From contig CAIKKG010000024.1 of NCBI GenBank assembly GCA_903827975.1, positions 523-64,522 on the forward strand: a stretch of DNA of 64,000 bases, written 5' to 3'. The stretch's first letter is position 1; every line of letters begins with the position of its first letter. The translations under genes and the position numbers were made by a program. The stretch comes from an uncultured bacterium (GTDB lineage Bacteria; Patescibacteriota; Minisyncoccia; UBA6257; GWB1-50-10). Below are positions 39,598 to 63,543 of this stretch, one piece after another. The notes beneath the pieces are model-generated. The model was not told where the DNA came from. It made no database searches and saw only the letters and a list, made by a program, of their open reading frames with translations.

Positions 39598-39999
39598 ATG
39601 AAAGGTCGGATGTTTGTTTATATAATAAATCAATTTATGAAAAATCTAATAAAATATTCAGTACTTGGTCTTTCAATGTTTCCAGTATTAGCATCTGCTG
39701 CTAATGCAATAACTGGTGGTCCTACAAGTGCTGGTGATGTTTGGACTATAATCAATAATCTTTTGGGTTGGATGGTTGGTCTTTTCTTTTTGGCTGCGAC
39801 TGTTTTTATTCTTTTGGCCGGTTTCAAATATATGACTGCGGCTGGAGATGAGTCAAAGGTTACAGAAGCAAAAAACTATCTTACATATGCTGTAATAGGT
39901 ATTGCTGTTGGGCTTTTAGCATTTGCTATCCCAAATATTCTTGCCTCATTCCTAAAAGTTAATGTTCCGACTGGGGGTCCAGCTGGACAGGCCTTCTAA
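39598..39999 (+). CDS. Pilin-module protein, paralog 3. The ATG at 39637 is an alternative start.
   Basis: It has a signal peptide and the conserved hairpin (AGFKYMTAAGDESKVTEAKNYLTYAVIGIAVGLLAFAIP). Confidence 0.6.
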   Translation: MKGRMFVYIINQFMKNLIKYSVLGLSMFPVLASAANAITGGPTSAGDVWTIINNLLGWMVGLFFLAATVFILLAGFKYMTAAGDESKVTEAKNYLTYAVIGIAVGLLAFAIPNILASFLKVNVPTGGPAGQAF

Positions 40000-46126: not shown

Positions 46127-46453
46127 ATGATTACAAAGGAAGAGTTTGAGATGCTCAAAGAAAAATTACTCGAGGATAAGATTAAACTTTCTGGGGAACT
46201 AGAAGATCCTCACGTCAGTTTTGGAAGTGATGTTGATGCCTTTGATGAGGAGACTGATGAGGCTGAGGAGTTTGCAAATAGACTTGGCATTCAGGTAACA
46301 CTTAAAGAGCGCCTTCGTGAGGTGAATAGTGCGCTTGAGAGAATGGCTGTTAATGAGTATGGAACTTGCGAAGAGTGTCATAACCCAATCTCACTCGAAG
46401 TTCTTTCGGCGGAACCAGAGTCGCGCCTCTGCAAGTCTTGCAAAATAAAATAA
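46127..46453 (+). CDS. DksA/TraR-family C4-type zinc-finger protein
   Basis: The 108-aa protein has a coiled-coil N-terminus and CEECHNPISLEV...CKSC. Its 3' end overlaps the comM start. Confidence 0.65.
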   Translation: MITKEEFEMLKEKLLEDKIKLSGELEDPHVSFGSDVDAFDEETDEAEEFANRLGIQVTLKERLREVNSALERMAVNEYGTCEECHNPISLEVLSAEPESRLCKSCKIK

Positions 46454-47998: not shown

Positions 47999-49069
47999 TT
48001 ACTTATTAGCAAAAGGATTTTTTACTCCTAAAACTTCGAAATGAAGATGGCACCCAGTAGGGCCGTCTGCATTCCCTGTACTTCCAACCAATCCAATCTG
48101 CTCTCCCTGAGTTACTGAATCACCAACCTTCACAAGCGCCTTGCTAAGGTGTGCATAGCGAGTCCTAACTCCGTTTGAGTGTTCAATAAGAACAAATAAT
48201 CCGTATCCATTATTCCATCCAGTAGAGCCATCGCTCTTAAGTGTACTGTCCTCTATTACCATTCCTCCTGCTGATGCCTTCACTGCAATGCCACACTTAT
48301 TTCCGATATCAACCGCGTTTACATCATGCAGCTCTCCAAAATTCATACCAGCAAGTGGAAGTGTAAAGAAATTTTTTAATTCCTGGAGTTTCGCGGTTGT
48401 CTGCTCTGCTGATATTTTAGCCGTTGGTTTTACAGCTGGTAATATCAGAGAACCACTTCCATCTGCCATGATTTTCTGGTAATTAGGGTTATATCTCTTT
48501 ATTGAGTCGATCTCTGTTGAATACTTCTTTGCTACACCCTCTAAAATATCACCCTCTTTTACGGTGTATAGCACACCAGACACTGGAAGTATTGATAATA
48601 CTTGGCCAACTTTTACAGCTTTTATACCACCATTCGCGAACTTTATTGTATCTGCTGAAATATTAAATTTTATTGCGATTTTTGCGATTGTGTCTCCTTT
48701 CTTCACCTTATACTGCTTAATGCCATTTTCTGATGCAGAAAAATCTGGCGTCGGATTTGATGTGGCAATTGCGGTAGCGCTCTCATTATCAACAAAAACC
48801 CTCCTTAGGTCAGTTGTATATGTCGGGGACACACCTAACCCAGACTGTAAAGATGGGTCGGCCTCTATTGAGATTGGGCCACCCTTATTTCCGAAATTAA
48901 GCTCTTCGTGAGCATAATAAAAAACCGCATTTGTGTGCGATAAAGGCATGAGATTCAGAATAAGCATGGTGGTCACGAAAATTAACGACCATATATTGGT
49001 CGTTTTTGATATCTCCTTTATTAGTGGTTCTATTTTCCTGACTATCAATTGTATTTTAGGAATAAACAC
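47999..49069 (-). CDS. LysM-repeat M23-family peptidoglycan endopeptidase
   Basis: There are two LysM repeats (YKVKKGDTIAKIAIKF; YTVKEGDILEGVAKKY) and an M23 catalytic region ending ...GPTGCHLHFEV. Confidence 0.8.
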   Translation of the reverse strand: MFIPKIQLIVRKIEPLIKEISKTTNIWSLIFVTTMLILNLMPLSHTNAVFYYAHEELNFGNKGGPISIEADPSLQSGLGVSPTYTTDLRRVFVDNESATAIATSNPTPDFSASENGIKQYKVKKGDTIAKIAIKFNISADTIKFANGGIKAVKVGQVLSILPVSGVLYTVKEGDILEGVAKKYSTEIDSIKRYNPNYQKIMADGSGSLILPAVKPTAKISAEQTTAKLQELKNFFTLPLAGMNFGELHDVNAVDIGNKCGIAVKASAGGMVIEDSTLKSDGSTGWNNGYGLFVLIEHSNGVRTRYAHLSKALVKVGDSVTQGEQIGLVGSTGNADGPTGCHLHFEVLGVKNPFANK

Positions 49070-49154
49070 ATTCTAGCAAATTCGGGTCTTTTTTTCAATT
49101 TAGTTGATGCTTAATGCGGAGCCCTGTGATAGAATAAAATTAGATATAAAGAAT

Positions 49155-49571
49155 ATGAACCTTATCAAACAACGCAAAACTTATTCTGGAATAATGCTTT
49201 TTATATTTTTATTTGTTATTTTTTTTAGTACACAGATAAAAAAAGCTGATGCTGTGGTTGGTTTTGTTGGTGGAATGACAGTCGGTGGAGAGATTGAGAC
49301 AATGTACCCATGCACATGTGGATATACGGCGTGGCTTGCGGCTATGTATATTTATATTCAAGGAAAGCCTTATACCATGTCAGGAACTTATGTTTTTTCA
49401 GAGACCATGACTGATATTTTCTCTAGTTGGATAGTAAAACCGTTATCAAGTATGGTTGGAACATACATTCCTGGCGTCCAGCTTTGCTATATGCAGGTTG
49501 GGTATGTTTGTACTGTCCTTCCATCAAGGGGATTCATAACAAAGATTGGTACCGGTCTTGCTGTGCAGTAG
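49155..49571 (+). CDS. Hypothetical small exported Cys-containing protein
   Basis: A signal-peptide-like N-terminus (MNLIKQRKTYSGIMLFIFLFVIFF) is present. The start was chosen at the internal ATG, and 49104 is an alternative. Confidence 0.4.
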   Translation: MNLIKQRKTYSGIMLFIFLFVIFFSTQIKKADAVVGFVGGMTVGGEIETMYPCTCGYTAWLAAMYIYIQGKPYTMSGTYVFSETMTDIFSSWIVKPLSSMVGTYIPGVQLCYMQVGYVCTVLPSRGFITKIGTGLAVQ

Positions 49572-49606
49572 TAATAAATTTATTTTTACTAAGTTAAACT
49601 AAAAAA

Positions 49607-50425
49607 ATGCGACAAAAATTTGGTCAGCACTTTCTTAAGAGTTCTGAAAAATTAAAATTAATATCTGAAGCAATACAAATTCAGGCGGGGGATACGGTAA
49701 TCGAGATAGGCCCAGGCCACGGCGAGCTAACCAACTTTATTATTGCTGAATTAGAGGGCCTCAAAAATACCAAGCTTATTCTGATTGAGCGCGATATTTT
49801 ACTTATCCCAGAGCTTCGTAGGAAGTTTAGCACCGCACTTTCTATTGGTAGATTAGAAATTATTGAGGGGGATGCTTTGTTTGAACTTCCGAAACTTGCT
49901 GAGAGGGAGAATATAAAAAATCTATCCTATAAACTGGTTGGTAATATTCCTTATTACATAACTGGATCTCTATTTCGAGTCATTGAGGGGTTGAAGAATA
50001 AGCCCTCGCTTGCAGTCTTCACACTTCAAAAAGAGGTTGCTATTCGCGTAACAGCTGACTCACCAAAAATGAACCTGCTTTCTGCGAGTGTTAAATACTT
50101 TGCGAACTCTGAGCTATTGATGATTTTATCAAAGGACTTATTCTCCCCGCCTCCGGAGGTTGATTCTGCGGTGATCCGCCTTGTAACACTTCCCGAGCCG
50201 GATGTAACACCACCAGAATTTTATTATACTTTTATAAAAGCTCTTTTTAAGCAGCCTAGAAAAACTCTTTTAAATAATCTAAAGGAGCTTCCTGAGTTTG
50301 GCGCGCTCTCACATGATGAACAGGAAAAATTACTTAGTGGTTTTGGTGTTTTGGAAAGCTCAAGACCGCAAGATATGCACATAAGCGCTATAAAACAATT
50401 AGCGAATGTGTTGTATACTAAATAG
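49607..50425 (+). CDS. rsmA: 16S rRNA (adenine1518/1519-N6)-dimethyltransferase
   Basis: MRQKFGQHFLKS followed by a SAM-binding VIEIGPGHGELT motif. Confidence 0.9.
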   Translation: MRQKFGQHFLKSSEKLKLISEAIQIQAGDTVIEIGPGHGELTNFIIAELEGLKNTKLILIERDILLIPELRRKFSTALSIGRLEIIEGDALFELPKLAERENIKNLSYKLVGNIPYYITGSLFRVIEGLKNKPSLAVFTLQKEVAIRVTADSPKMNLLSASVKYFANSELLMILSKDLFSPPPEVDSAVIRLVTLPEPDVTPPEFYYTFIKALFKQPRKTLLNNLKELPEFGALSHDEQEKLLSGFGVLESSRPQDMHISAIKQLANVLYTK

Positions 50426-50430
50426 TATAA

Positions 50431-51186
50431 ATGCAGAAAAGAACTATTATTTCTCTCGGCATTCTTCTAACCGGCATAGTGAGCATGGTCTGGCTTTTTT
50501 CAGGAGAAAAAACAAAGGCTGGTAATTTCGACATATCTATTTCTGCGGGTGGAACAGATGATGCACGTTTTGTTGGTGTTGGTGGTGGGACTGGTGATTA
50601 CTCAAATTCACAAAACAGAACGGAAGACGTTGCAAAGGAGTATGGACTTGAGATGTTAAAAATAAATCCGCAAGGAATTGGAAATGTTACTGGTGTAGCC
50701 CTTCCAAATGATGCGGTTTTAAATGGTATTGTGAATCGAGCGGCTTCCGCAAAAATTTTAGTTAAGCTTTTCACCAAGACAGATTTTAAGATTGTCAGTG
50801 ACTCTTCCTCTAGCACAATAAAAAATTATATTGGCTCACTCGTTGATGAAGAAAACAAAGCAGCCGCAGCTACGGCTCTTTTTTACAAAGTACTTGGTAG
50901 CTTCGTAACTGAGAGTGATTCTCAGAAACTTATTTCTATAAATAATGATATTTCAATACATATAAATGAATTACTTGCGATGCAAGTTCCAGAATCATGG
51001 GCCACTTTTCATCTTGGCCTATTAAATTTTTGGGAGTCAAAGTTAACCTATTCAAAGTCATTTCTTAATAAAGGGAGTGATCCGTTATTGGCGGCAAGTG
51101 CCTCACAAAATCTTTTGCTGTTACTAGATCAAGAAAAAAGTATTAGGACTGATTTTTTAAGTCGCGTTAGTGGAATTAAATTGTAA
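50431..51186 (+). CDS. Hypothetical membrane-anchored protein, the first gene of the T4SS-like operon
   Basis: The 251-aa protein has an N-terminal TM anchor, and the gene is tightly packed with those downstream. Confidence 0.45.
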   Translation: MQKRTIISLGILLTGIVSMVWLFSGEKTKAGNFDISISAGGTDDARFVGVGGGTGDYSNSQNRTEDVAKEYGLEMLKINPQGIGNVTGVALPNDAVLNGIVNRAASAKILVKLFTKTDFKIVSDSSSSTIKNYIGSLVDEENKAAAATALFYKVLGSFVTESDSQKLISINNDISIHINELLAMQVPESWATFHLGLLNFWESKLTYSKSFLNKGSDPLLAASASQNLLLLLDQEKSIRTDFLSRVSGIKL

Positions 51187-51188
51187 AT

Positions 51189-53198
51189 ATGCAGACCAGA
51201 AAAATAAGAATACTCACATCATTTCTCGCGGTTGTAATTCTCTCGAACTCGCTTTTTTTTGCGTTTCCTCAAAAATCTCTTGCCCAGACTAGTGCTGATG
51301 GTGGTGCTCAGGAAATTGCAGCAAAGTGTGGACTCACAAACGCTACTACGTGGATAGCGGGTAAGCTTTCGGCGGTTGTAACTGGTGCGACTCCAAACAC
51401 TCAGGTTTCTGTAAAGAATGATGAGGCAGCCTCAACCTCTCTTTGGGATGGAGCAAAAGAATGTCTCCTTGCGCTTTGGAATGCTCTTATAAAGATAGCT
51501 TTTAACATGTTTAAAAAGCGCTTACTTGATAGGCTCACCGATGATCTGGTTGGTTGGATAAGTGGAAAAACTGGCAAGCCAAAGTTTATCACTAATTATA
51601 AGGACATGTTAAAGAACACGGCTGATGCTGCTCTTGGAGATACTATTCGTGCAATCGGAGCTGGAAAGTTGTGCGACAATAAACTTAGTGTTCAGCTTCA
51701 ATTAAATCTTCAAGCACTGGATTCTCAAGATTTTTCTAAGAGAGTGGACTGCACGCTTTCTCAGGTTGTTAAGAACATTGGGGCTTTTGGAGATAATTTT
51801 AAAAATGGAAGTTGGATTGGGTATCAGGAGGTCAATTCGCTTCAAAATAATAAGTATGGACTACAACTTTTGGCTATGGATAATCTCGCGCGAGGTCAGG
51901 CAAAGCAGACCGATCTTTTAAAAACCGAGATGGGGGGCTCAAACGGATTCCTATCCACTAAACTTTGTAATAAATGGACAATAATAGGACAAAAGAATGA
52001 TTGTAATACAGGAAGGGGAACGCTCTGCCCAGCTGAGATTGAGCTTGGCTCATTTATCTCTCCACGTGGCAATGATACATACCTAGATGCGGAACAGGAT
52101 GGCTCAGCACTAGCCATAAAATTCCAAGGCGACTCATCAATGAGCTCTTCACTAGCTCAGGTTCCTCCTAATGCTCAGATTAATAAGCTTTTGTGTAAGC
52201 CGGAGGACCAGAAAATAACAACACCTGGATCAACGCTCGCCGCCTCACTAAGCAACTCTCTTGATGCTGATACGAGGAAATTAATAGGTGCTGACGACCT
52301 AACTCCATATTTAGCAAAAATATTTGATGCTGCTTTTAATCGTGTAATAAAAGAGGGTGTTAGAGGGCTCGCAGAAGCTAGCACGAATATTTTCAGTCAG
52401 AGTAGTACTGGCACACAACCACAGTCATATCAAACGAGCTCTCAGTGCTCCTCAATTCGTACCAATGGAACAACTCAATGCTCATTAATACTCACTCAGG
52501 GCGCTCCACAGTGTATTGCCGAGAAGAAGCTTGGTGCTACGGATGCTGATTATGCAAAATGTAATTTAGCCGCTAAGAATGATTGTAATGCCGCCGCGGC
52601 ATCTGCTTGTGATCGCGATGCTATCTATGTTGGTTATGGAGGTTCAATGGTTAGCACCGCCACATCGGACTTACAGTTAAATTCTGTGTCCACATCTACA
52701 ATCTATAACCTTGCGTCCACAACACTTAATACAATTAATACAAAGATTCCACCAATACTTGCTGAGGTTCAGGCTTTGTATGTTCAGTACCAAGGAAGCT
52801 TGATGCTTCTCTCTAGTTGTGAAAAGGCCAAAACCCTACCAAAAGAGGTGTGCCCAACTACATCACTACTTCTAACTCAGTTAATACCCGTCTCCTCACG
52901 CATTAATGGTGTTCCGATGGCAGTAACAACATATAAAAATGAATTGTTGGAAATTATTGGAAAATTAAACAACCCATCACTTAAAGCTGCTGATGCATCA
53001 TATCTTTCTGTTCGGGTCCAGCTTATTTCAACTGATATAACAGATACAATAGACAAATTTACTTCTGATAAATCCATGTTGACGGCTATAAACTTAACAG
53101 AAGAATATAATTCATGCTCAGCAGCAATACCATCAGCGAATAAATATTACATATGCCCAGGCACTAGCACTCCGGGTGGTGGTCCGATTCAGCCGTAA
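51189..53198 (+). CDS. Large exported Cys-rich protein of the T4SS-like operon
   Basis: The 669-aa protein has a signal peptide (…SLAQTSA) and more than 20 Cys residues spread through a Ser/Thr/Asn-rich sequence. Confidence 0.45.
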   Translation: MQTRKIRILTSFLAVVILSNSLFFAFPQKSLAQTSADGGAQEIAAKCGLTNATTWIAGKLSAVVTGATPNTQVSVKNDEAASTSLWDGAKECLLALWNALIKIAFNMFKKRLLDRLTDDLVGWISGKTGKPKFITNYKDMLKNTADAALGDTIRAIGAGKLCDNKLSVQLQLNLQALDSQDFSKRVDCTLSQVVKNIGAFGDNFKNGSWIGYQEVNSLQNNKYGLQLLAMDNLARGQAKQTDLLKTEMGGSNGFLSTKLCNKWTIIGQKNDCNTGRGTLCPAEIELGSFISPRGNDTYLDAEQDGSALAIKFQGDSSMSSSLAQVPPNAQINKLLCKPEDQKITTPGSTLAASLSNSLDADTRKLIGADDLTPYLAKIFDAAFNRVIKEGVRGLAEASTNIFSQSSTGTQPQSYQTSSQCSSIRTNGTTQCSLILTQGAPQCIAEKKLGATDADYAKCNLAAKNDCNAAAASACDRDAIYVGYGGSMVSTATSDLQLNSVSTSTIYNLASTTLNTINTKIPPILAEVQALYVQYQGSLMLLSSCEKAKTLPKEVCPTTSLLLTQLIPVSSRINGVPMAVTTYKNELLEIIGKLNNPSLKAADASYLSVRVQLISTDITDTIDKFTSDKSMLTAINLTEEYNSCSAAIPSANKYYICPGTSTPGGGPIQP

Positions 53199-53206
53199 AT
53201 ATAACA

Positions 53207-55237
53207 ATGAAGCTTCTCAATAAAAAACTGTTACTGGTTTTAGGAATCGTTCTTCTTTCTGGACTTGTCGTCCCTCATTTAGCGCATGCAGCTGGTATGA
53301 TGGAACAGGCACTTACAGATGTAGTAACCTATACCTTTAAATTCATTACCTATATTTTTGCATATATAGGTTCGGTATTATTCAGTTTTGCCGGTATGCT
53401 AGTGGACTACACACTGAGACTTAATATGACTGTTGGGGATACTGAAAAGAATCTTCTTCTTGGTGTTGGTTGGGGCATCACAAAAGATATTGCAAACCTT
53501 GGCTTCGTGCTCGCTATGATTATTATTGCGTTCGCAACAATAATCGGAAATGAAAGTTATGGATACAAAAAATTACTTGCTAATTTAATTGGTGCTGCGA
53601 TTGCTGTAAACTTCAGTCTTGCAATTGCTGGGGTATTTATCGATTTCTCTCATGTTATTACTGTATTTTTTATAAATAAAATAAGTACTACTGGCGCTTC
53701 TGGCATGGCTGAGCAGATGGCAAATGCGTTTAGCGTTCAGAATTTTCTATTAGAGGACTCTAACAATCCACTACCTCCGAATCCGTCTGAGGAGAGTGGG
53801 ACAATGTCACGCCTAAGTACTGCGGTTGTAATCTCTCTTGTGAGTTTAGTCTTTGTACTTGTGTTCACAATAACGGCTGCAATTATATTTTTAATATTTG
53901 CAATAATGCTTCTCGCTCGATATGTCTGGCTATCATTCCTTCTTATTATCGCTCCGATAACATGGTTGTTCTGGGTTATCCCTGGAATGAGTGGTAAGTT
54001 CGGAGAGTGGTGGAGTAACTTCTTAAAACAGGTTTTCTTTGCACCAGCAATGACGTTCTTCCTATATCTTGCTTTTATGAGTGTGCAGGGTCTTGCCGAA
54101 AAACCAGCCACGGGTGCTTTCTTCAAAGATGGCGCGCTTGCAGCAATAATAAGTTCTGGAGCTAATATGGTTGTTTTGATTGGAATCCTTGTTGGTGGAC
54201 TTATAACAGCTGAAAAAATGGGCGCAACTGGCGCAAAAATGGGAATGGAGAGATTGTCTGCTTTGGGTGGCGCCTCAAAGGATTATGCAGGGAGTATAGC
54301 TAAGAAATATGGTAAGAAGGTTGCAGAAACAAAAGCTGTTAAGAGTGTGCAGAGTGCAGCCCTTCGTGTTGGCTCTAGCGCAAGGAAGCTTGCTGAATAT
54401 AAACCAACAAGTAGAACTGGTAAGATTTTGACCGCTGTAACAGGGCTAGGTCTTGCAAAGTCTGTTGTTGGACTTGGAGGAGAAAAATTACAAAATATTG
54501 GTGGCGTGCCAGTAAATCCGGACTCGCTTGGTTCAAGGGCCTGGTCTGCGGTCTGGGGTAAGTATCCTGATAATCGCGCTCAATCTAAGAAGGATGCTGA
54601 TGAGAGGGAACAAAACAAGGGAGCTGAGGAGCTCACGGCTGATCATGAGAAACTACGCACCGAGCGACAGAGGCTTGTTGATAATGGCGTAAGTGAGAAA
54701 GACCCAAGAATTGTCACTATGGATAAGCAACTTGGAAAGCTAAAATCAAGTGTTGTAGAGAAAACAAGCCTACCAAAAGACGTAGAAGGATTAATTAACA
54801 AAGAAAAGGAATTGAAGTTGAAGTTGGAAGAATTGGCAGCTGGTGGTAGTGACATCTCTGTGATTAAAAAGCAACTTGAGAAAGCAACTGATGAACTTGA
54901 TAAGGCTCAAAGAGAGGACTCGAAAATAACACCGGCTAGTAGGGCGTGGAAGAGCCACCGCATTACAAAAGAAGCCACTAGAATGGCTGGTATAATAGGC
55001 GGAAAAATAAAACCTGGTGAGCCAGACCCAGACACAGACACAGATTCCGCTATAGCACAAGAGAAATTATGGCGCGAAATTGATACGCAGAAGAAGCCTA
55101 ACTCCAAACCAGCTTGGGCGGAACGCGTAATTAAACTCGACGCTGCTCTAACAGAAGCTACTGCTGCCCACCTTCCACCTGACGCACTTAAGTACATTGG
55201 GGATTTAAAGGCTGAGGCGATTGATAAGAGTACATAA
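53207..55237 (+). CDS. VirB6/TrbL-like polytopic inner-membrane channel protein with a C-terminal coiled-coil charged tail
   Basis: The 676-aa protein has a signal or TM N-terminus, at least 6 TM helices across the first 350 residues, then a K/E-rich coiled coil. Confidence 0.5.
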   Translation: MKLLNKKLLLVLGIVLLSGLVVPHLAHAAGMMEQALTDVVTYTFKFITYIFAYIGSVLFSFAGMLVDYTLRLNMTVGDTEKNLLLGVGWGITKDIANLGFVLAMIIIAFATIIGNESYGYKKLLANLIGAAIAVNFSLAIAGVFIDFSHVITVFFINKISTTGASGMAEQMANAFSVQNFLLEDSNNPLPPNPSEESGTMSRLSTAVVISLVSLVFVLVFTITAAIIFLIFAIMLLARYVWLSFLLIIAPITWLFWVIPGMSGKFGEWWSNFLKQVFFAPAMTFFLYLAFMSVQGLAEKPATGAFFKDGALAAIISSGANMVVLIGILVGGLITAEKMGATGAKMGMERLSALGGASKDYAGSIAKKYGKKVAETKAVKSVQSAALRVGSSARKLAEYKPTSRTGKILTAVTGLGLAKSVVGLGGEKLQNIGGVPVNPDSLGSRAWSAVWGKYPDNRAQSKKDADEREQNKGAEELTADHEKLRTERQRLVDNGVSEKDPRIVTMDKQLGKLKSSVVEKTSLPKDVEGLINKEKELKLKLEELAAGGSDISVIKKQLEKATDELDKAQREDSKITPASRAWKSHRITKEATRMAGIIGGKIKPGEPDPDTDTDSAIAQEKLWREIDTQKKPNSKPAWAERVIKLDAALTEATAAHLPPDALKYIGDLKAEAIDKST

Positions 55238-55308
55238 TTTAGTGGTAGTTGGTAAAATAATTATAGTACTTACCTAATCTAAAATAGTAATCACACAAAA
55301 CAGATAAT

Positions 55309-56439
55309 ATGGCATTCGAATATCCATCAAAAAACGCTTTTCTTAATAGGTATAAAAATCTACACGAAACACTTCGTGAGGTTGTCGACTCCTCTGAAAC
55401 AAATAGGGTTTTTAAGAGTATCTGTAGGGAGCATTATCTAAATAGTGAGAAGGAGGAGCTTCTTGGCGCATTGGTTTCTTTTGTTCTCATGGGTTTCTTA
55501 CCACAGGAAGACCTTGCAAATGAGATAGGTGAGCAGTTGTTCTTGAATGATAGGCACTCAAAGGAGCTTGCGAATGAGATTAATACTCGCGTTTTCTACA
55601 CAATAAAAGATGAGATAGCGTCAGAATACAACCCAACTAGAGATGAGGGTGAACAACCATCAGAGATTGGTGTTCAGCAATATGAGGCTATAGAGCCTGA
55701 GCCGTTAGCGGTTGAAAGCGAGACTGAGGAGATTGAGCTTCCTAATACATTTGGTGAGAATATTCGCGCTAGCGCGGGTGATACAAGTGATATGCCGGTC
55801 TCACTACAGATTAACGAAGATGGTGGGCCAGCAGTGCTTCAAGAAGGTGCTTCGTTTTTCAAAAAATCCACAGAGCAGGCAGAGAGAAGGGCTCCAATTG
55901 CTCCGTTCAAGATGTTCGCCTCATCATCAGAGTCTACGGATGCGAGACCAACTGTAAGAGTAAAAGTTGAAACCCCACGCTCTTTTGGTTGGCCGGCAGA
56001 AAAAAAAGAGGAGGAGAGCGTCGTTCATTATAATGAGTCTGCGTTTCCGACTGACCAGCAGGCCTCTGAAGGTTTAATTCACCTTGAGGCAATTCAAAAT
56101 ATTACTCCTGATACCACGAAAAGTTCTCCAATCCCAGCAGTTGAAACACCAGTTGTGAGTCAGGATGTCGTGAATACAGAGCTTCCTGCGGTTGTGAGCC
56201 AAAATACTGAGGATAAGAAGGCGTGGTCAATAAAATCAATATTCAAAAAAGAAAATACCAACGAGAAGAAAATATCTTTTAATGAGATGCCGGCAACCGA
56301 TACAGATCAACATATTCCTGTTCAGATAACAACGAGTGTTTCAAAAGATGCTCCTTTTGTTATTTCTACAGAGGAATCTTCCAAAGAAGTAGATAAAAAA
56401 GATCCGGCGCTCGATGGTAATGTGGTTCATCTTAAGTAG
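55309..56439 (+). CDS. Hypothetical acidic protein of the T4SS-like operon
   Basis: The 376-aa protein is Glu/Asp/Ser/Thr-rich with no TM helix. Confidence 0.4.
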   Translation: MAFEYPSKNAFLNRYKNLHETLREVVDSSETNRVFKSICREHYLNSEKEELLGALVSFVLMGFLPQEDLANEIGEQLFLNDRHSKELANEINTRVFYTIKDEIASEYNPTRDEGEQPSEIGVQQYEAIEPEPLAVESETEEIELPNTFGENIRASAGDTSDMPVSLQINEDGGPAVLQEGASFFKKSTEQAERRAPIAPFKMFASSSESTDARPTVRVKVETPRSFGWPAEKKEEESVVHYNESAFPTDQQASEGLIHLEAIQNITPDTTKSSPIPAVETPVVSQDVVNTELPAVVSQNTEDKKAWSIKSIFKKENTNEKKISFNEMPATDTDQHIPVQITTSVSKDAPFVISTEESSKEVDKKDPALDGNVVHLK

Positions 56440-56447
56440 TTTTTAAT

Positions 56448-56930
56448 ATGGCAGAATTCCAAGTTCCGCAATTTATCGAGGAGAAACCAAAAATCGTTGG
56501 CCCACTAACCATCGTTCAGTTTTTGTATATTGGTTCTGGTGCGGCAATTTCTCTTATAAGTTATTACGCTTTTAATACTATTTTATGGTTAATTATCTCA
56601 ATAATAGTTGTTGGAATATCAGTTGCGCTCGCCTTTGTTAAGGTTAATGGCCAGGACCTGCCAGTTGTTGCTTTGTCTGCTTTTCAGTTTATATGGGGCC
56701 CAAGAAAATACACTTGGCAAAGAGCGATGGAGCAGACGACTTTTGATACTTCTGATTTGGAGAAGATTCAGGTAATAAGAAAAAATATCAGCATTCAAGA
56801 TAAAATTAAATCTATTGCGCTTGGTATTACAACTGGAAGTATTGAGAGAACGAAAGCCGGCGGTACAAAATTTCAGTCTGTTACCTACATAACAGGGGAG
56901 CATAAGGTTGCGAAGAGAGTTGATTACTAA
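56448..56930 (+). CDS. VirB3/PrgI-like small two-TM protein
   Basis: The 160-aa protein starts MAEFQVPQFIEEKPKIVGPLTIVQFLYIGSGAAISLISYY… with two adjacent TM helices, and sits immediately upstream of the VirB4-type ATPase as in canonical T4SS loci. Confidence 0.5.
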   Translation: MAEFQVPQFIEEKPKIVGPLTIVQFLYIGSGAAISLISYYAFNTILWLIISIIVVGISVALAFVKVNGQDLPVVALSAFQFIWGPRKYTWQRAMEQTTFDTSDLEKIQVIRKNISIQDKIKSIALGITTGSIERTKAGGTKFQSVTYITGEHKVAKRVDY

Positions 56931-56959
56931 ACCGCGTAAATACGGTACAATATTAATAC

Positions 56960-57598
56960 ATGGCTGATATAAGCATCCCAACACAACAATTCGTTGACGT
57001 AAAAGAAGTACGCGATGGCGTTTTGTATTTAAAGTCTGGTGGTATCCGCAAAATACTTATCGTCGGCGGAATTAACTTTGATCTCAAATCAGAAGGTGAG
57101 CAAAATACAATACTTGCAAGTTTCCAGAATTTTTTAAATACAATTGATTTTCCTATACAACTTCTCATTCACTCAAGAAAGGTTAATGTTGAGAGTTATC
57201 TTTCGAAAATGGTTCAGTTAAAAGATAAAGAGGATAATGAACTTTTAAAAATACAGATTGGTGAATATATAAACTTCATACGTTCTTTTGTTGATGAGAA
57301 CGCAATAATTAGTAAGGTATTTTTAGTTGTTGTCCCATATGAGTCTGCTTCTGCGAAATCAAGTTCATCTGGTTTTTTTGATATTTTTAAAAAACAGACG
57401 AAGGTTGAGATTAATGAGTCCGAAAATGCTGCAATAGAGCAACTTAATCATAGGGTTTCTGAGGTGACCGACGGATTAATGCAGGTTGGTCTTAATGTTA
57501 CATCACTTAATAGTGATGAGATTACTGAGTTGTTTTACAATATGTACAATCCACAACTAGCCGAGAAGAAAAATATGGACTTAATAAAAGAATCATAA
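56960..57598 (+). CDS. VirB4/TraE-type conjugation-family ATPase, N-terminal domain ORF
   Basis: MADISIPTQQFVDVKEVRDGVLYLKSGGIRKILIVGGINFDLKSEGEQNTILASFQNFLNTIDFPIQLLIH matches the N-terminal membrane-proximal domain of Gram-positive-type VirB4 (TcpF/PrgJ-like). It ends with TAA-GAA-TAA, in frame with the next ORF. Confidence 0.6.
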   Translation: MADISIPTQQFVDVKEVRDGVLYLKSGGIRKILIVGGINFDLKSEGEQNTILASFQNFLNTIDFPIQLLIHSRKVNVESYLSKMVQLKDKEDNELLKIQIGEYINFIRSFVDENAIISKVFLVVVPYESASAKSSSSGFFDIFKKQTKVEINESENAAIEQLNHRVSEVTDGLMQVGLNVTSLNSDEITELFYNMYNPQLAEKKNMDLIKES

Positions 57599-57607
57599 GA
57601 ATAAAAA

Positions 57608-59359
57608 ATGAAGATACAAATTCCACAAACTTATAAACCATCATCGAAAGACCTACCAAATATTGTAGCGCCGTCAGGTCTTGAGGTAGATGCTAATTAT
57701 TTGAAACTAGGTGATTACTTTGTAAAAACTATTTTTATTTTTACGTACCCTCGCTTCGTGGTTTCTGGTTGGTTCTCTCCTATTATAAATATTTCGGAGA
57801 TGATGGATATCTCTATTTTCGTTCACCCAATGGAGACTGGCGCGGCCTTGCGCGACCTACAAAAGAAGGTTGCTCAAGTGCAGTCTGAGCTTTCTGAGAA
57901 GGAATCGAAGGGTATGGTTCGCGATCCACTACTTGAAACAGCTTATCAGGACATTGAGAGTCTAAGAGATTCATTGATGCAGGCGAGGGAGAAACTTTTT
58001 AAGGTTGGTGTTTATATTACTTTATATGGGCAGAGCCTTGAGGCGCTTACAAAATTGGAGAATGAGATAGAATCCTTACTTGAAAGTAAGTTGATATATG
58101 TTAAACCCGCGCTTTTCAAACAACTTGAAGGTTTTAATTCTATTCTTCCACTTTGTACTGATAAACTACTAACACACACACCACTTAATTCTGGGCCAGC
58201 ATCGTCCCTTTTTCCCTTCGTCTCTCCAGACCTTACATCAGATAAGGGAATTATGTATGGGATTAATATACACAACAGCAGCCTCGTTATATTCGATCGC
58301 TTCTCCCTTGAAAATGCCAACCAGGTTATATTTGCAAAATCAGGTGCTGGTAAATCATACACTGCAAAACTTTTGATTCTTCGCTCTCTCATGGTTGGAA
58401 CTAATGTTATTGTTATTGATCCTGAGAATGAGTATCAGAATCTTTCAAGCGCTATTGGTGGAAGTTATTTTAAAATCTCACTTACTTCATCGAGCCACAT
58501 TAATCCCTTTGACATACCAATCATACCGGAGGGGGATGAGCCGGCGGACGTTTTTAAATCACACATATTAAATTTGTCTGGCTTGGTTAAATTAATGCTT
58601 GGCGCAATATCACCTGAAGAGGATGCTCTACTTGATAAGGCTCTTACTGATACATATGCATCGCGCGATATTACCGCGGAAAACTTTGGTCAAACAAAGG
58701 AAATGGATGCACCACTCTTAGAAGATTTGCAGGTTATCTTACAAAACAACAAGGGTGGTTTCCAACTTGCACAACGCCTTGAAAAATTCACACATGGAAC
58801 ATATGCGGGTTTTACAAATGCTCCAACAAACGTTGATTTTAAAAATCGTTTGATTGTTTTCTCGATTCGCGACCTTGATGAGGAGTTGCGACCAATCGCG
58901 ATGTATATTGTTTTGAACTTTGTTTGGAATCTTGTTCGTGCTGAGCTTCGACCACGATTTCTTATTGTTGATGAGGCGTGGATTATGATGAAGTTTAAAG
59001 ACAGCGCCTCTTTCTTGTTTGGACTTGTTAAGCGTGCTCGTAAATACTACCTTGGAATCACAACCATTACACAGGACGTTGAGGACTTTTTGAAGTCTGA
59101 GTATGGTAAGCCTATCGTCACAAACTCAGCAACCCAGATTTTAATGAAACAATCTCCAGCATCTATTGATTCAGTTGCTAGTGCGTTTAGTCTTACAGAG
59201 GGTGAGCGCGGCTTACTACTTGAGGCGAGTGTTGGAGAGGGATTGTTTTTTGCGGGCGCAAAACATGTTGCTATTAAAATTATTGCGTCATACACAGAGG
59301 ATCAAATAATAACAACAAAACCTGATCAGATTTTAGAAATTAAGGGTCTAAAACAATAA
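57608..59359 (+). CDS. VirB4/TraE-type ATPase, C-terminal ATPase domain ORF
   Basis: Walker A AKSGAGKSYT, Walker B FLIVDEAW and C-terminal motifs are present. The frame is the same as the preceding ORF. Confidence 0.7.
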   Translation: MKIQIPQTYKPSSKDLPNIVAPSGLEVDANYLKLGDYFVKTIFIFTYPRFVVSGWFSPIINISEMMDISIFVHPMETGAALRDLQKKVAQVQSELSEKESKGMVRDPLLETAYQDIESLRDSLMQAREKLFKVGVYITLYGQSLEALTKLENEIESLLESKLIYVKPALFKQLEGFNSILPLCTDKLLTHTPLNSGPASSLFPFVSPDLTSDKGIMYGINIHNSSLVIFDRFSLENANQVIFAKSGAGKSYTAKLLILRSLMVGTNVIVIDPENEYQNLSSAIGGSYFKISLTSSSHINPFDIPIIPEGDEPADVFKSHILNLSGLVKLMLGAISPEEDALLDKALTDTYASRDITAENFGQTKEMDAPLLEDLQVILQNNKGGFQLAQRLEKFTHGTYAGFTNAPTNVDFKNRLIVFSIRDLDEELRPIAMYIVLNFVWNLVRAELRPRFLIVDEAWIMMKFKDSASFLFGLVKRARKYYLGITTITQDVEDFLKSEYGKPIVTNSATQILMKQSPASIDSVASAFSLTEGERGLLLEASVGEGLFFAGAKHVAIKIIASYTEDQIITTKPDQILEIKGLKQ

Positions 59360-59362
59360 TAA

Positions 59363-59752
59363 ATGCCTAAAAAAACGCCGCAAACCCCGCAGAAAAAAAT
59401 GGGTGAGCCACTAGCGGAACCAAAGTTTGGTATGGTTGAGCTATTTTTAGGTTCTTTTTTTTGTCTTCTACTTGATTTGTTATCAGCCATCACAGCAATA
59501 GCTTTTGTGGGTCTTTTCGTAAAATCTTTCTCGTGGCTTATTTTTACTTTTTGGTTTAAAATTAAGAAGTGTCATGTTGCAGATAGTCTTATTGGAAGAT
59601 TTCTTGTTCCAGTATTTGTAAATTTAATTCCAATTGTTCCAACTTTAGCCGCAACGTTTCTTGTCTCCGCATATATGGAGAATCACCCAGAAAAGTTTGC
59701 CGCCGTTGAACAACTGACCCCAGCAACTGCAAATGTTCCCATTAAAAAATAA
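59363..59752 (+). CDS. Hypothetical small membrane protein of the T4SS-like operon
   Basis: The 129-aa protein has 3 TM helices. Confidence 0.4.
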   Translation: MPKKTPQTPQKKMGEPLAEPKFGMVELFLGSFFCLLLDLLSAITAIAFVGLFVKSFSWLIFTFWFKIKKCHVADSLIGRFLVPVFVNLIPIVPTLAATFLVSAYMENHPEKFAAVEQLTPATANVPIKK

Positions 59753-60452
59753 AACTATGAGATTTTTTTTCAAAATAGTAATCACAGCATTTTCTTTTAT
59801 CGCTCTTGTTTCAACAACAAATGTTTTTGCTGCTCCTGTTGTTACCCCTCAAATTCCACCGCGTTTAATTCTTTCTTGGAGTGCGTCGAGCATTCACCCG
59901 TCTAACTATAAGGGCAAGGTTCTTCCTTCTTTAAACACGCCAATAGTTGTTTCTGTTGAGTTGCTCGCAAATGGTAAGTTTGCCGATATATCTAAAACAA
60001 CAATTATTTGGAGAAAGTCTGGAGAGGTGATTAAGCGTGGTGTCGGATTAAAACAAATATTTATTGCACCTGACTCAAATGATTCAAGTGATGTTTTTAT
60101 AGATGCTGAGGTTGATTTTGCTAACAACGTTGTGGAACAGTCGCTTTTGATCCCCGTTGTAAAACCTTTTGTTTCTATCGAGATACCATATCCAAACTCT
60201 GTTGTTCGTGGTGATTCTGATGTAACAATTAGAGCGACCCCTTATTTTTTCAATGCCTCTTCTCTTGATGATCTTGTTTTTTACTGGCAGATTGGTGATA
60301 TAAAAAAGAATATGGAACAGAACAACTCCATCACACTTAAGGTTTCTGGTGCTTATTCCTCCCAGGATAGCCTTCCTATAACCTCGTATGTGCAGAGCAG
60401 GGATGTGTTAACTGATATAATAGTAACTAACAAACCGTTATTTGTTCGATAA
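59733..60452 (+). CDS. Hypothetical exported protein of the T4SS-like operon
   Basis: The 239-aa protein has a signal peptide (…TNVFAAP). Confidence 0.45.
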   Translation: MFPLKNKTMRFFFKIVITAFSFIALVSTTNVFAAPVVTPQIPPRLILSWSASSIHPSNYKGKVLPSLNTPIVVSVELLANGKFADISKTTIIWRKSGEVIKRGVGLKQIFIAPDSNDSSDVFIDAEVDFANNVVEQSLLIPVVKPFVSIEIPYPNSVVRGDSDVTIRATPYFFNASSLDDLVFYWQIGDIKKNMEQNNSITLKVSGAYSSQDSLPITSYVQSRDVLTDIIVTNKPLFVR

Positions 60453-60458
60453 TCACGC

Positions 60459-61670
60459 ATGAAACCAATTTATAAAATTCTTATTACTTTAGTTGTAATA
60501 ATCATCGTCATATTCCTTTCATATTTCTTGTGGACAAAGTTTTTTGCGCCAAAGTCTGTGACGCCACAAGAGCCTGGAACTGGTGTGATAATTACACCTC
60601 CTAGTGATAATAATGGTCAGACTGGAGGAGGTGATAATCCTCCGGGTGGCGCGCCAGGCACATCAACACCTACAACATCTAACGTGGATGAGTATTTATT
60701 TAAAAAACTTTCTGATAAGCCGGCTCTGGCTTTTTGGGTCTCTATAACTGGTAATACGGCTTTTTATGTTTCTGAGTCTGGCGTAGTTATGGAGGCTAAG
60801 GATGGAGAGGACTCTGTAGTTTCAAAACAACCAATCTCTAATTTTATAAGTTTAGAGGCGTCTCCATCTGGTGAGAAGGTTATTCTTTCCTTTGGAAGTC
60901 CGTCAAATATTCAATTGGCAATTTTTGATTCTGTTGATAAGGTTTTGCGCCCACTTCCAAAAGAAATCTTAAGTGCTTCGTGGGCTGGAACTGATAATCA
61001 GTTGGTTGGTGTCACACAACAAAATGATGTAACTCTACTCTCATTAATAAATATCTCAAAACAACCCTACACTTACAAGACGCTTGTAACAAATTTTTCT
61101 ATAAAGGATGCTTTGTTTTCTGCCAAGTCAGCAACTGAGATTTTAATCTCTGAAAAACCTTCATCTCACTCTCTATCTGGCGTCTGGCAACTAGATACTG
61201 ACACCGGCGTTATGACACTTGTTGTGAGCCCTGCTCTTGGTTCTTTTATAAGGTGGGCTAGTGGAAAGGATTTAATGTTTAAGTTCGCATCACCAAATAA
61301 GTTTTCAATACTGGATCGTTCCTTTGGTGAAATATCGCCGGTGTTATTTACAACGCTACCAAATAAATGTGATGGTGGTCTTGATGTGATTTATTGTTTT
61401 ATTCCTAAAGACAAGGGTGTTTTCTCAAATACAAACTCGATGCCTGACGATTATTTTATGAATAATATCTTCACTAGTGACGATTTTTATAAAATCTCTC
61501 CGTCCTCCGGCATTGAATCACTTATAATGGCTGGTGGGTCGGGTAAGATTCCGGTTATTGATGCGGATAATGTCTCATATGCAAACTCATCAACTTATTT
61601 TATTAATAAGTATGATAATTATGTTTATGCAATTCAAAAAACAACAAATGAAGTTATTAATGATTACTAA
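60459..61670 (+). CDS. Hypothetical membrane-anchored extracytoplasmic protein of the T4SS-like operon
   Basis: The 403-aa protein has an N-terminal TM anchor and a Gly/Pro/Thr linker. Confidence 0.45.
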   Translation: MKPIYKILITLVVIIIVIFLSYFLWTKFFAPKSVTPQEPGTGVIITPPSDNNGQTGGGDNPPGGAPGTSTPTTSNVDEYLFKKLSDKPALAFWVSITGNTAFYVSESGVVMEAKDGEDSVVSKQPISNFISLEASPSGEKVILSFGSPSNIQLAIFDSVDKVLRPLPKEILSASWAGTDNQLVGVTQQNDVTLLSLINISKQPYTYKTLVTNFSIKDALFSAKSATEILISEKPSSHSLSGVWQLDTDTGVMTLVVSPALGSFIRWASGKDLMFKFASPNKFSILDRSFGEISPVLFTTLPNKCDGGLDVIYCFIPKDKGVFSNTNSMPDDYFMNNIFTSDDFYKISPSSGIESLIMAGGSGKIPVIDADNVSYANSSTYFINKYDNYVYAIQKTTNEVINDY

Positions 61671-63081
61671 AAAGGTTTTACTGTCCTTGTTTGTGGTTGT
61701 TGCTGTGTTTGCTCCAATGTACTTATTTGCAGCGGAAACAGCATCGACTGGCCCAACACCGATTGTTGTTACAATGTCATCACCAATGCCGTGCATTCCA
61801 GTTCCTTTCATGGGTGGGAACACCTGCTCACAACCCGCAGGAGACTCAGCTATTCAGACTTATATAAAACTTTTGTATCAATTCGCGGTTGGAATCTCTG
61901 GTATTGTTGCTGTAGGAATGATTGTGTGGGGATCTATTCAGATTTCTTTATTTAGCGAGAGTATAACCCAGAAAAGTGAGGGGAGGGATAAAATTACGTC
62001 AGCAATAATTGGTGTTATTCTTCTTCTTGGTTCTTATTTGCTACTTAATACTATAAACCCGAGAATTGTTCAGCTTGGTCAGACACTTACAACTGTTAAA
62101 CAAGCAAAGCCGTCATCAGACATTGCAAAGGTTGGTGTGTCGAGTTGTGGAACATCAACTTTAATATCAGGAGCGGTTGGTACACCAATAGATTTTAATG
62201 TTAAACCAGACGCTGGTAATACTTGTAAATATAGAAAGCTTTTTGTATATAGAGATGGTTTTACAATTTCTGGTATGGATGCTGCATATTATGGTGGTTC
62301 TGGTGATGTTCAAATAGCGGCGCAGTCTGTTATTTGGCTCTACCCTTATCGCGTGAAGGGGGCTGTGGAAACATTTGATAGCAACGGCACACTAGCAAGC
62401 GCTAAGTGTATTGTATATGCATATAAAGAGCCTAGTATGACGAGTATTCGTTTTACAAACCTACAAAATACAATTGAGCCTTGTGTGTTAAGTGACAAAC
62501 AGGAAGATGGGTATGTTGGTGGTCCTGGGTCAGGAGTTGGTAACGTTTCTGGAGATGTAAAGGATTTAGCCAATCAATTAGGTAGTCCAAACTCTACTGT
62601 GAAATTCTCTACGGACAATTCTTGTAATCCTCCCGGCTCTGCCGCAAAAAATATTCTTTATTCTATGCAAAACGGAACGGCGCCTTTTGTCTGCTCTGCT
62701 GGTTGTCAAACAAACAAAACAGAGTGCACACAAAATGGGGCTTATCCTGAGGCTTCTATATTAAAAGCAATTATAGCCCTGCAAAATTCTAAAACAACAG
62801 TTTCGACGGTCACTAGTTTAACTGGTGGTGATCATTCGGCTAATTCTGGGCATTACCAAGGTACAGCTTTTGATCTCAGTGTAGGATCAAGCAACACAGA
62901 TGATTGGAATAATGTTATGAAAATTTTAAATACTTCGGGTGTTACAGCATACTGCGAATACCAAGGACCTGGGGAGGATAAAGCTAAACTTCACACAAAA
63001 TGTGCAACTGGAATAAGTGGTGGGCATCTCCATGTACAGGTCAATAAAAACAGTAATGCTATAAACAATGGGACTCCATAA
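61648..63081 (+). CDS. Fusion protein with an N-terminal VirB2/TrbC-like pilin module and a C-terminal M15-family zinc peptidoglycan peptidase domain
   Basis: After the signal peptide comes the conserved hairpin AVGISGIVAVGMIVWGSIQISLFSESITQKSEGRDKITSAIIGVILLLGSYLLLNT, paralogous to 38463, 38893 and 39598. The C-terminus has SGHYQGTAFDL and GGHLHVQV (H-x6-D ... H-x-H zinc site of M15, VanY/endolysin type). The start was trimmed from the ORF-track 61534 to the ATG after the upstream stop. Confidence 0.6.
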   Translation: MKLLMITKKVLLSLFVVVAVFAPMYLFAAETASTGPTPIVVTMSSPMPCIPVPFMGGNTCSQPAGDSAIQTYIKLLYQFAVGISGIVAVGMIVWGSIQISLFSESITQKSEGRDKITSAIIGVILLLGSYLLLNTINPRIVQLGQTLTTVKQAKPSSDIAKVGVSSCGTSTLISGAVGTPIDFNVKPDAGNTCKYRKLFVYRDGFTISGMDAAYYGGSGDVQIAAQSVIWLYPYRVKGAVETFDSNGTLASAKCIVYAYKEPSMTSIRFTNLQNTIEPCVLSDKQEDGYVGGPGSGVGNVSGDVKDLANQLGSPNSTVKFSTDNSCNPPGSAAKNILYSMQNGTAPFVCSAGCQTNKTECTQNGAYPEASILKAIIALQNSKTTVSTVTSLTGGDHSANSGHYQGTAFDLSVGSSNTDDWNNVMKILNTSGVTAYCEYQGPGEDKAKLHTKCATGISGGHLHVQVNKNSNAINNGTP

Positions 63082-63083
63082 AA

Positions 63084-63118
63084 ATAAAAATCCCCGCTTT
63101 ATGCGGGGATTTTTTTAT
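63084..63118. terminator. Bidirectional terminator between the T4SS-like operon and jag
   Basis: AAAAATCCCCGCTTTATGCGGGGATTTTTTT. Confidence 0.75.
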
Positions 63119-63543
63119 GAGACGAATTTTATTACAACCCTTCTTTCTTTTCCCATTCCAGTACTCTCTGTTTTAAGTTCTGGATTTGCTGTTATCTCCA
63201 TATGCACCAGGCGCCTCTCATAGCCGTTCATTGCGGGTAGTTCGACTTCTTGCTTCGTTATCATCGCTTTGCGTGCTGCAGCCTTAACCAGCTCCACTAT
63301 TAGGCGTTCTCGCTCCTTCCTGTAGTAGTTTAGATCAATAACGTGGGGAATAAGACCCTCTTTCTTTAAAACGATGTTTATTATGTGATCTATTGCCGGA
63401 AGTATTATTTCTACATTATCGGACACAAACCTGTCGTCAATAAGAATGATAACTTTCCTGCGCTCCTCGTCGATAGCAACCTCGGCCTCCGGATACCCGA
63501 GAAGTGCTATTATCTCCTTTGTTTTCTCAATAATAGGGTTCAT
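63115..63543 (-). CDS. jag: Jag/KhpB-family RNA-binding protein with KH-like and R3H domains
   Basis: The 142-aa protein has the R3H motif NGYERRLVHMEI and sits downstream of yidC as in the rnpA-yidC-jag operon. Confidence 0.7.
   Translation of the reverse strand: MNPIIEKTKEIIALLGYPEAEVAIDEERRKVIILIDDRFVSDNVEIILPAIDHIINIVLKKEGLIPHVIDLNYYRKERERLIVELVKAAARKAMITKQEVELPAMNGYERRLVHMEITANPELKTESTGMGKERRVVIKFVS

Follow-up and report, generated by a model that had tools for sequence, protein, structure and literature searches.

A chromosomal gene cluster of an uncultured patescibacterium very probably encodes a type IV secretion system without conjugation functions

How does a gene cluster that carries the motor of a conjugation machine, and none of the proteins that would process DNA for transfer, come to sit between housekeeping genes of a bacterial chromosome, and what might it build there? 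This question is raised by positions 50431-63081 of a 64-kb stretch of contig CAIKKG010000024.1 (hereafter the window, meaning the whole stretch that was analysed), whose source organism belongs to the Patescibacteria, within the Paceibacteria/Parcubacteria group. A preliminary description of the sequence had read these positions as a secretion operon of twelve tightly spaced same-strand genes; we counted 11 open reading frames (ORFs; g1 to g11, Table 1), all indeed on the plus strand and separated by gaps of -20 to +71 nt. We conclude with high confidence that the cluster is a chromosomally inherited type IV secretion system (T4SS) of the Patescibacteria clade, descended from Gram-positive MPF-FATA conjugation machinery whose DNA-processing parts have been lost, and we regard its membership among the patescibacterial T4SSs as firmer still. 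This kind of system, which ultrasmall Patescibacteria carry beside the origin of replication, is already known, having been described in 2023-2025, and the window adds no new kind.

By its family matches, g7 is the VirB4 ATPase, the predicted motor of the T4SS. It matched the NCBIfam model NF045971 ("VirB4-like conjugal transfer ATPase, CD1110 family") over profile positions 183-734 with E = 3e-103 and 346.5 bits (cutoff 325), as well as Pfam P-loop_TraG (4.5e-26), and it carries a Walker A motif (AKSGAGKS at 243) and a Walker B motif (FLIVDE(AW) at 451), which confirms the identification that the preliminary description had made for this gene. The nearest solved structure is the C-domain of Thermoanaerobacter VirB4 (PDB 4ag5, E = 9e-46), with R388 TrwK at 1e-4. 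Given the matches to VirB4 family models, an assignment of g7 to the FtsK/HerA ATPases was rejected.

The VirB4 N-domain, which had been placed within the ATPase gene, is encoded separately by g6. This protein matched NCBIfam NF041427 TrsD/TraD (6.4e-9), a same-species protein carries a precomputed Pfam match to PF26593 (TraC-like), and g6 aligns to positions 2-134 of the CD1110-family VirB4 model, being the counterpart of the initial ~180 positions in profiles of full-length VirB4. Relatives were taken from a scan of one genome per species, and synteny was counted in the best 80 of at least 596 g7-related loci. In 4 of 78 related loci (L015, at 746-3106, L018, L034 and L051), g6 and g7 form a single in-frame ORF of ~790 aa, with TrsD and VirB4 fused and PrgI separate in L015; the TrsD/VirB4 split is thus real and lineage-specific.

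The VirB3-like protein with two transmembrane (TM) segments is g5, which matched Pfam PrgI (PF12666; E = 7.5e-7, 30 bits, cutoff 27). Its identity had thereby been anticipated correctly and its position had not, as it lies two genes upstream of VirB4, with g6 in between, rather than immediately before it. Consecutively, g5, g6 and g7 align to positions 24-126, 129-288 and 291-893 of one VirB3-VirB4 fusion model (NF045975, Mbov_0397) from the T4SS of a Mycoplasma integrative and conjugative element (ICE). The two systems differ in that three genes stand here for one fusion, the score is 282 bits against a model cutoff of 590, and the cluster is not on an ICE.

A VirB6/TrbL-like polytopic protein with a coiled-coil tail had also been proposed, and g3 fits this description well, having ~7 hydrophobic segments followed by a long, charged coiled-coil C-terminal tail. 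In our local scan g3 itself fell below the Pfam threshold, and a profile search of PDB chains found no VirB6, so that the assignment was recovered solely through predicted structure and precomputed Pfam matches. Its counterpart in same-species contigs carries PF19590 (TrbL_3), and TrbL (PF04610) matched 8 of 57 homologues, with a best E of 1.2e-4. When the AlphaFold2 model of g3 (pLDDT 83.5) was compared with the PDB by Foldseek, the top five matches were all TrwI/VirB6 chains of R388 (E = 2.5e-3, probability 1.0, template-modelling score 0.45-0.54).

We found the gene order to be conserved between housekeeping genes in many species. The best 80 loci all lie in metagenome-assembled genomes of Patescibacteria (Paceibacterota, Parcubacteria, Jorgensenbacteria, Harrisonbacteria, Kaiserbacteria and others), and their VirB4 proteins are 57-80% identical to g7, whereas plasmid VirB4s (at least 5,000), the best of which come from Actinobacteria and Firmicutes, reach only 30-35% identity. 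This similarity ranking, which is not a phylogeny, strongly suggests that g7 falls within the Patescibacteria VirB4 clade. The core of g5, g6 and g7 is present in 77-80 of the 80 loci and an in-cluster pilin in 45, and the complete order ksgA-g1...g11-jag-yidC is kept in ~35 loci, those of closer relatives. On contigs with an identical VirB4, jag-yidC is followed by rnpA, rpmH (L34), dnaA and dnaN, with dnaA ~4 kb past g11. From the conserved chromosomal order and the contrast in VirB4 identity, we therefore conclude that the cluster is vertically inherited and chromosomal, and not a mobile element.

At the 5' side of the cluster, the ksgA stop codon precedes g1 by 5 nt; at its 3' side, a strong terminator-like hairpin separates g11 from the convergent jag (R3H) gene, with yidC beyond, and marks the end of the cluster. 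A promoter scan returned 35 sigma-70-like sites compared to 41 in shuffled controls, and because the sites were rarer than in the controls we claim no promoter.

The absence of conjugation functions, likewise noted in the preliminary description, was borne out. No relaxase and no VirD4 coupling protein was found among the ~47 larger ORFs scanned, which make up most of the long ORFs of the window, and for lack of both we do not regard the cluster as a conjugation system. The only FtsK-like protein in the window is a true FtsK, since it has both the alpha and the gamma domain. Repeats between 49000 and 63200 are short and imperfect only, and none of them resembles an oriT-like structure, a flanking repeat or an attachment-like site. 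The unit holds no integrase, the sole recombinase in the scanned ORFs being of the XerC/D type, 9 kb upstream of the cluster and among housekeeping genes. Nor is there an anomaly in composition, as the cluster GC of 0.37-0.44 spans the same range as the entire window. Outside the cluster, ~36 larger ORFs were scanned: nearly all are housekeeping genes, among them LeuRS, H+-PPase, NusA, TsaD, another class I tRNA synthetase, FolD, RecA, FtsK, FtsH, S1, GyrA, PNPase, the XerC/D-type recombinase, an NYN-domain protein, DksA/TraR and ComM, and four had no Pfam match.

VirB2-like pilins occur both inside and outside the cluster. The last gene, g11, is the terminal pilin-hydrolase fusion that had been predicted, with a pilin domain at about residues 62-132 (Pfam T4SS_pilin above threshold at 62-124) and a LAS (Hedgehog/DD-peptidase) zinc-hydrolase domain at about residues 296-465 (this C-domain is window 62545-63078); its start codon is ambiguous among 61534, 61627, 61648 and 61660. 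The pilin domain also gave a weak match to the Mbov_0395 pilin-like model (E = 1.1e-3). The hydrolase domain escaped the local scans with Pfam and NCBIfam and was found by motif conservation, structure prediction and family-wide scanning; an adhesin match of g11 in a direct PDB sequence search was spurious. Upon searching 1.84 billion proteins with the C-domain, we obtained 141 representative clusters at 50% identity. In an alignment of 94 of these relatives, H398, G401 and D405 were invariant, and H392, S396, Y399, H456 and H458 together with six cysteines were nearly so. The C-domain contains the H-x6-D ... H-x-H zinc-binding/catalytic motif on a Hedgehog/DD-peptidase fold, and its SxHxxGxAxD...HxH pattern is what we take to be the LAS enzyme signature. 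T4SS_pilin was present in 78 of the 94 relatives as well, indicating that the pilin-hydrolase fusion is a recurrent architecture; HH_signal was matched in 10, Peptidase_M15 families in 4 and an SLT (lytic transglycosylase) domain in 3. Members of the family are mostly ~300 aa long with the LAS domain at the C terminus. In other Paceibacteria, the in-cluster pilin has a C-terminal extension of 250-400 residues with a different sequence, one of them with a weak CHAP match.

Three further VirB2-like pilin genes stand in tandem ~10 kb upstream of the cluster, outside the interval originally reported, between a solute-binding-protein gene and tRNA-Leu. A hidden Markov model of the in-cluster pilins found all three (4e-16, 2e-9 and 6e-11), their T4SS_pilin scores were 26.7, 43.3 and 52.7 bits (cutoff 26.6), and the middle one, which has a Cys/Gly-rich N-terminal extension, also matched TrbC at 2e-4. 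Together with g11, four proteins in the window reach the T4SS_pilin gathering score. The array genes probably encode pilus subunits of the same T4SS. The wording "pilus-like" in the preliminary description does not hold in the sense of a type IV pilus: among the 11 cluster proteins there was no PilB/GspE-type ATPase, PilC/GspF platform, type IV prepilin (with class III signal peptide) or prepilin peptidase, and a type IV pilus, type II secretion or Tad system was ruled out, as the ATPase is a VirB4 and the pilins are of the VirB2/TrbC type.

A wall hydrolase with LysM and Peptidase_M23 domains is encoded just upstream, divergently from the ksgA-T4SS string. Its gene was detected by tblastn in 8 loci, and in 6 of them (L001, L002, L003, L005, L006 and L013) the position is the same. 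VirB1-like proteins near virB4 are reported to carry M23/LysM domains (PMC12102498), and the enzyme is a candidate T4SS accessory, perhaps in a VirB1-like role.

The remaining proteins are mostly exported or membrane-bound. In agreement with the expectation of at least five exported or anchored proteins, g1, g2, g9, g10 and g11 each have a single N-terminal hydrophobic segment. The ectodomain of g1 (TM segment at 5-23) is mostly helical; g1 had no Pfam or NCBIfam match and its profile found nothing meaningful among PDB sequences, and because only 7 of the 80 related loci have an orthologue at this position, it appears to evolve fast. The Cys-rich g2 has the length that had been given for it, though with 18 cysteines rather than more than 20. 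Its conserved core spans about residues 100-400, followed by a variable, Cys-rich C-terminal part; all but one of its 19 homologues, and g2 itself, lack a Pfam match, and its profile returned only coiled-coil noise from the PDB. The protein g4 is cytoplasmic, with a conserved helical N-domain of ~110 aa and then a long acidic, Pro-rich region of low conservation; neither Pfam, NCBIfam nor a profile search of the PDB gave a match. Orthologues of g8 lie directly 3' of VirB4 in 7-8 close loci, and the protein had no Pfam or NCBIfam match; a further pilin was considered here and rejected, as hhalign against the pilin profile gave a probability of 0.3%. In g9, which had no Pfam or NCBIfam match either, W49, P56, W93 and W185 are invariant, and its weak PDB matches (E 0.2-2) are to immunoglobulin (Ig)-like chains only; its inferred fold is possibly that of two Ig-like modules. 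For g10, a profile of 28 orthologues matched TolB beta-propeller chains (E = 3.5e-9) and WD40 proteins (~1e-7). When all PDB chains were searched with profiles of g1, g2, g3, g4 and g9, nothing specific emerged, and VirB8, VirB5 and adhesins were not matched.

Table 1. Coordinates of the T4SS cluster and of other features in the window; the last column gives the number of loci with a counterpart among the best 80.
Feature	Position	Strand	Description	Loci
g1	50431-51186	+	251 aa, bitopic membrane protein	7
g2	51189-53198	+	669 aa, exported, 18 Cys	28
g3	53207-55237	+	VirB6/TrbL-type polytopic membrane protein	48
g4	55309-56439	+	376 aa, no TM segment	16
g5	56448-56930	+	PrgI family (VirB3-equivalent), 2 TM	77
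g6	56960-57598	+	TrsD/TraC-like soluble protein	78
g7	57608-59359	+	VirB4 ATPase, Gram-positive/MPF-FATA type	
g8	59363-59752	+	129 aa, small membrane protein, 2 hydrophobic segments	
g9	59733-60452	+	~231-239 aa, exported, beta-rich	31
g10	60459-61670	+	TolB-like beta-propeller, membrane-anchored (TM 7-25)	29
g11	~61660-63081	+	VirB2-like pilin / middle beta domain / LAS zinc hydrolase	
Bidirectional terminator-like hairpin	63086-63114	none	12-bp stem, 6 GC pairs, flanking A and T runs	
ksgA/rsmA	49607-50425	string with g1-g11	16S rRNA dimethyltransferase, RrnaAD 1.9e-40	
VirB2-like pilin array, gene 1	38463-38876	+	137 aa	
VirB2-like pilin array, gene 2	38893-39579	+	228 aa	
VirB2-like pilin array, gene 3	39598-39999	+	133 aa	
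Wall hydrolase	47999-49069	-	Peptidase_M23 4.8e-23, LysM 6.8e-17	
XerC/D-type recombinase	40714-41604			
Small Cys-containing ORF	49104-49571	+	155 aa	
DksA/TraR-type protein	46127-46453	+	C4 zinc finger, 108 aa	
ComM/Mg-chelatase-like ATPase	46438-47997	+	TTG start	
tRNA-Ile	29233-29305	-	anticodon TAT (UAU), ARAGORN	
H+-translocating pyrophosphatase	5875-8271	-	membrane protein, 617 bits	
DUF11-repeat protein	13998-15800	+	600 aa	

These components closely resemble what has been reported for other Patescibacteria. Quinonero-Coronel et al. (2025) described the VirB4 proteins of Patescibacteria as a monophyletic clade within MPF-FATA, in which TrsD is the commonest companion of virB4 and PrgI, VirB6 and VirB2-like pilins, often in arrays, also occur, and in which the T4SSs of Paceibacteria lie near ksgA, rnpA, rpmH, dnaA and dnaN (PMC12102498). 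Wang et al. (2023) showed by transposon sequencing (Tn-seq) that epibiotic growth of the saccharibacterium S. epibionticum depends essentially on its homologous T4SS cluster, the pilins among it, and noted that this cluster lacks coupling and relaxase proteins (PMC10633639). With these systems (S. epibionticum SEML1_0006-0019) the window cluster shares VirB4, a separate TrsD-like protein, PrgI/VirB3, VirB6, VirB2-like pilins including a tandem array, wall hydrolases, the lack of a relaxase and, as reported for Paceibacteria, the chromosomal site near ksgA, rnpA, rpmH and dnaA, and we found no fundamental difference between them. In S. epibionticum the pilin array lies inside the cluster, whereas here it lies 10 kb from virB4. 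The pilin-LAS fusion, the TolB-like propeller and several Paceibacteria-specific exported proteins were not found described for Patescibacteria T4SSs in the literature searched.

More distant systems were compared as well. Gram-positive MPF-FATA T4SSs (pGO1 Trs, pCF10 Prg/Pcf and the C. difficile CTn-type CD1110) share the CD1110-model VirB4, PrgI as VirB3 and a monoderm architecture without VirB7/9/10, and the split TrsD-like N-domain of pGO1 matches g6. In contrast to them, the system described here has neither a relaxase nor a type IV coupling protein (T4CP; PcfC/VirD4) among the ORFs scanned, it lacks a PrgB-type adhesin, and a VirB8-like protein was not detected. It has VirB2-like pilins, which the Gram-positive systems lack, and it is chromosome-fixed rather than mobile, with a VirB4 only 30-35% identical to theirs. 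The Gram-negative R388 Trw/VirB system shares the VirB4 fold (TrwK, E = 1e-4), the VirB6 fold (TrwI as top Foldseek match) and VirB2-type pilins, whereas its outer-membrane core complex (VirB7/9/10) and VirB5, VirB8, VirB11 and VirD4 were not detected in the cluster. Likeness to the archaeal Ced/Ted systems is structural only (Aeropyrum pernix pilin, PDB 8dfu, 13% identity); g7 matches CedB weakly, and the cluster has no CedA-like channel protein.

How might such an apparatus work? Reasoning from general T4SS biology, we consider it rather likely that the products build a filament that serves as a conduit. In this scheme, the VirB4 ATPase g7 together with g6 would dock on g5 (PrgI/VirB3) and g3 (VirB6/TrbL_3) to form a translocon in the cytoplasmic membrane. 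As in other T4SSs, VirB4 would then extract VirB2-like pilins, supplied by the array at 38463-39999 and perhaps also by the pilin module of g11, from the membrane and polymerize them into a tube, while the LAS zinc peptidase of g11, possibly with the nearby M23/LysM enzyme, would open the wall locally. The exported, lineage-specific g1, g2, g9 and g10 could provide a wall-spanning or host-contact scaffold. The filament or conduit might touch a host cell and move macromolecules between the cells, an epibiotic role suggested by what is known of other lineages. The earlier proposal of a chromosomally fixed, minimal, non-conjugative T4SS with VirB2-like pilins that serves contact or exchange with a host is supported in this form and fits the published accounts (PMC12102498, PMC10633639, PMC12857230).

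Could the cluster instead belong to an integrated plasmid or to an ICE, active or degenerate, with a relaxase, a coupling protein and an integrase that have diverged beyond recognition or lie outside the window? We find this hardly credible. The match of g7 to an NCBIfam conjugal-transfer ATPase model (CD1110), the location of its nearest non-Patescibacteria relatives on conjugative plasmids, and the remark that very different relaxases are not excluded for Patescibacteria T4SSs (PMC12102498) all speak in its favour, but it is largely refuted by the finding that dozens of species have the cluster at one chromosomal site, flanked by ksgA and by jag-yidC-rnpA-dnaA, and that its divergence tracks the host. 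Nor does a mobile element sit well with the normal GC content, the lack of flanking repeats or attachment-like sites at 49000-63200, and the lack of a relaxase, T4CP or adjacent integrase among the ORFs scanned in 64 kb; a relaxase lies near only 15 of 2,474 patescibacterial virB4 genes (PMC12102498). Very unlikely, too, is a purely adhesive surface filament that attaches the cell to its host and translocates nothing. Such a filament would be compatible with the presence of several pilin genes, with the many proteins that are exported or resemble adhesins (g2, g9 and g10) and with the missing coupling protein, and T4SS pili are mainly attachment organelles in many systems (PMC12857230), yet adhesion and motility are already served by type IV pili in Patescibacteria (PMC12857230; PMC11665869), and the phylum-wide retention of the translocon parts VirB6 and VirB3 argues for a channel function. 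A dedicated importer that brings host DNA or RNA into a nucleotide-auxotrophic cell, comparable to the H. pylori ComB T4SS or archaeal Ced/Ted, is unlikely. A 2024 perspective that called the role of the Saccharibacteria T4SS completely unknown suggested nucleotide acquisition (PMC11665869), and a 2026 preprint reported a cultivated relative with tubular structures reaching the host and uptake of host RNA. Pfam and NCBIfam scans found no ComEC-like or other DNA channel, DNA-binding protein or nuclease among the cluster genes, and in S. epibionticum the T4SS is essential independently of competence, which relies on type IV pili and ComEC (PMC12857230; PMC10633639). As sequence does not set the direction of transport, import would be a special case of the T4SS conduit rather than an alternative to it.

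Several points weigh against a T4SS that acts in epibiotic exchange. Essentiality has been demonstrated in Saccharibacteria only, a class different from the lineage studied here, and a relaxase or T4CP could lie elsewhere in the genome, of which 64 kb were examined. Five of the 11 proteins (g1, g2, g4, g8 and g9) could not be assigned to a family, and the structural match of g3 to VirB6 is modest (Foldseek E = 2.5e-3, template-modelling score ~0.5). No VirB8-family protein (NTF2 fold; compare PrgL, TraM and TcpC) was matched by the sequence profiles of g1 and g9 in the PDB, and with no VirB8-like protein detected the channel lacks a part that the Gram-positive model calls for. Furthermore, the 340-residue C-terminal extension of g11 may not fit a canonical VirB2 pilus.

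This extension also invites a bolder and decidedly more doubtful thought, namely that g11 represents an undescribed module joining a VirB2-type pilin hairpin to a LAS zinc peptidase, with SLT as an additional partner in some relatives. A peptidoglycan cutter would then be built into the T4SS filament or anchored beside it, and together with g2, g9 and g10 the module would make a device for penetrating the host, not just a passive channel. If so, the apparatus could cut through its own wall, or that of the host, at the point of contact. A pilin-LAS-peptidase fusion was not described in the literature searched, which, given the limited search, is weak evidence of novelty.

Few machines of the candidate phyla radiation are as conserved, or as little understood, as the Patescibacteria T4SS, which is present in ~80% of genomes and essential in the one species tested, and a 2025 review called these the first T4SSs essential for the survival of the bacteria that carry them and proposed the pilus as a conduit for uptake or signalling (PMC12857230). 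For Paceibacteria, the window serves as an example that is both clean and complete and shows the whole gene order, ksgA through dnaA. It offers testable parts, namely the TolB-like propeller, the separate three-gene pilin array and, as the most novel of them, the pilin-anchored LAS peptidase family. Through these parts one could ask by what means an ultrasmall epibiont gets through cell walls and makes its connection to the host.

Some observations concern the surroundings of the cluster. Between the M23 peptidase gene and ksgA lies the small ORF listed in Table 1, whose product has an N-terminal hydrophobic segment, five cysteines and no family; a gene is called there in same-species contigs (138-154 aa), and tblastn found it in none of 80 related loci. 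A few kb upstream of the cluster, the genes for the DksA/TraR-type zinc-finger protein and the ComM-like ATPase overlap by 16 nt; ComM is a competence-associated helicase in other bacteria. Elsewhere in the window, beside tRNA-Val(TAC), there is a tRNA-Ile with a UAU anticodon. Most bacteria decode AUA with a lysidine-modified CAU tRNA, and the presence of this tRNA therefore suggests a TilS-independent strategy. The minimum of the cumulative GC skew falls near 32-33 kb of the window, after which the skew rises, although dnaA lies ~4 kb past the right end; this turn may be due to gene orientation and not to a replication origin. Finally, the H+-translocating pyrophosphatase, the DUF11-repeat protein and a neighbouring 507-aa protein with a weak glycosyltransferase match are possible envelope and energy features of a reduced genome.

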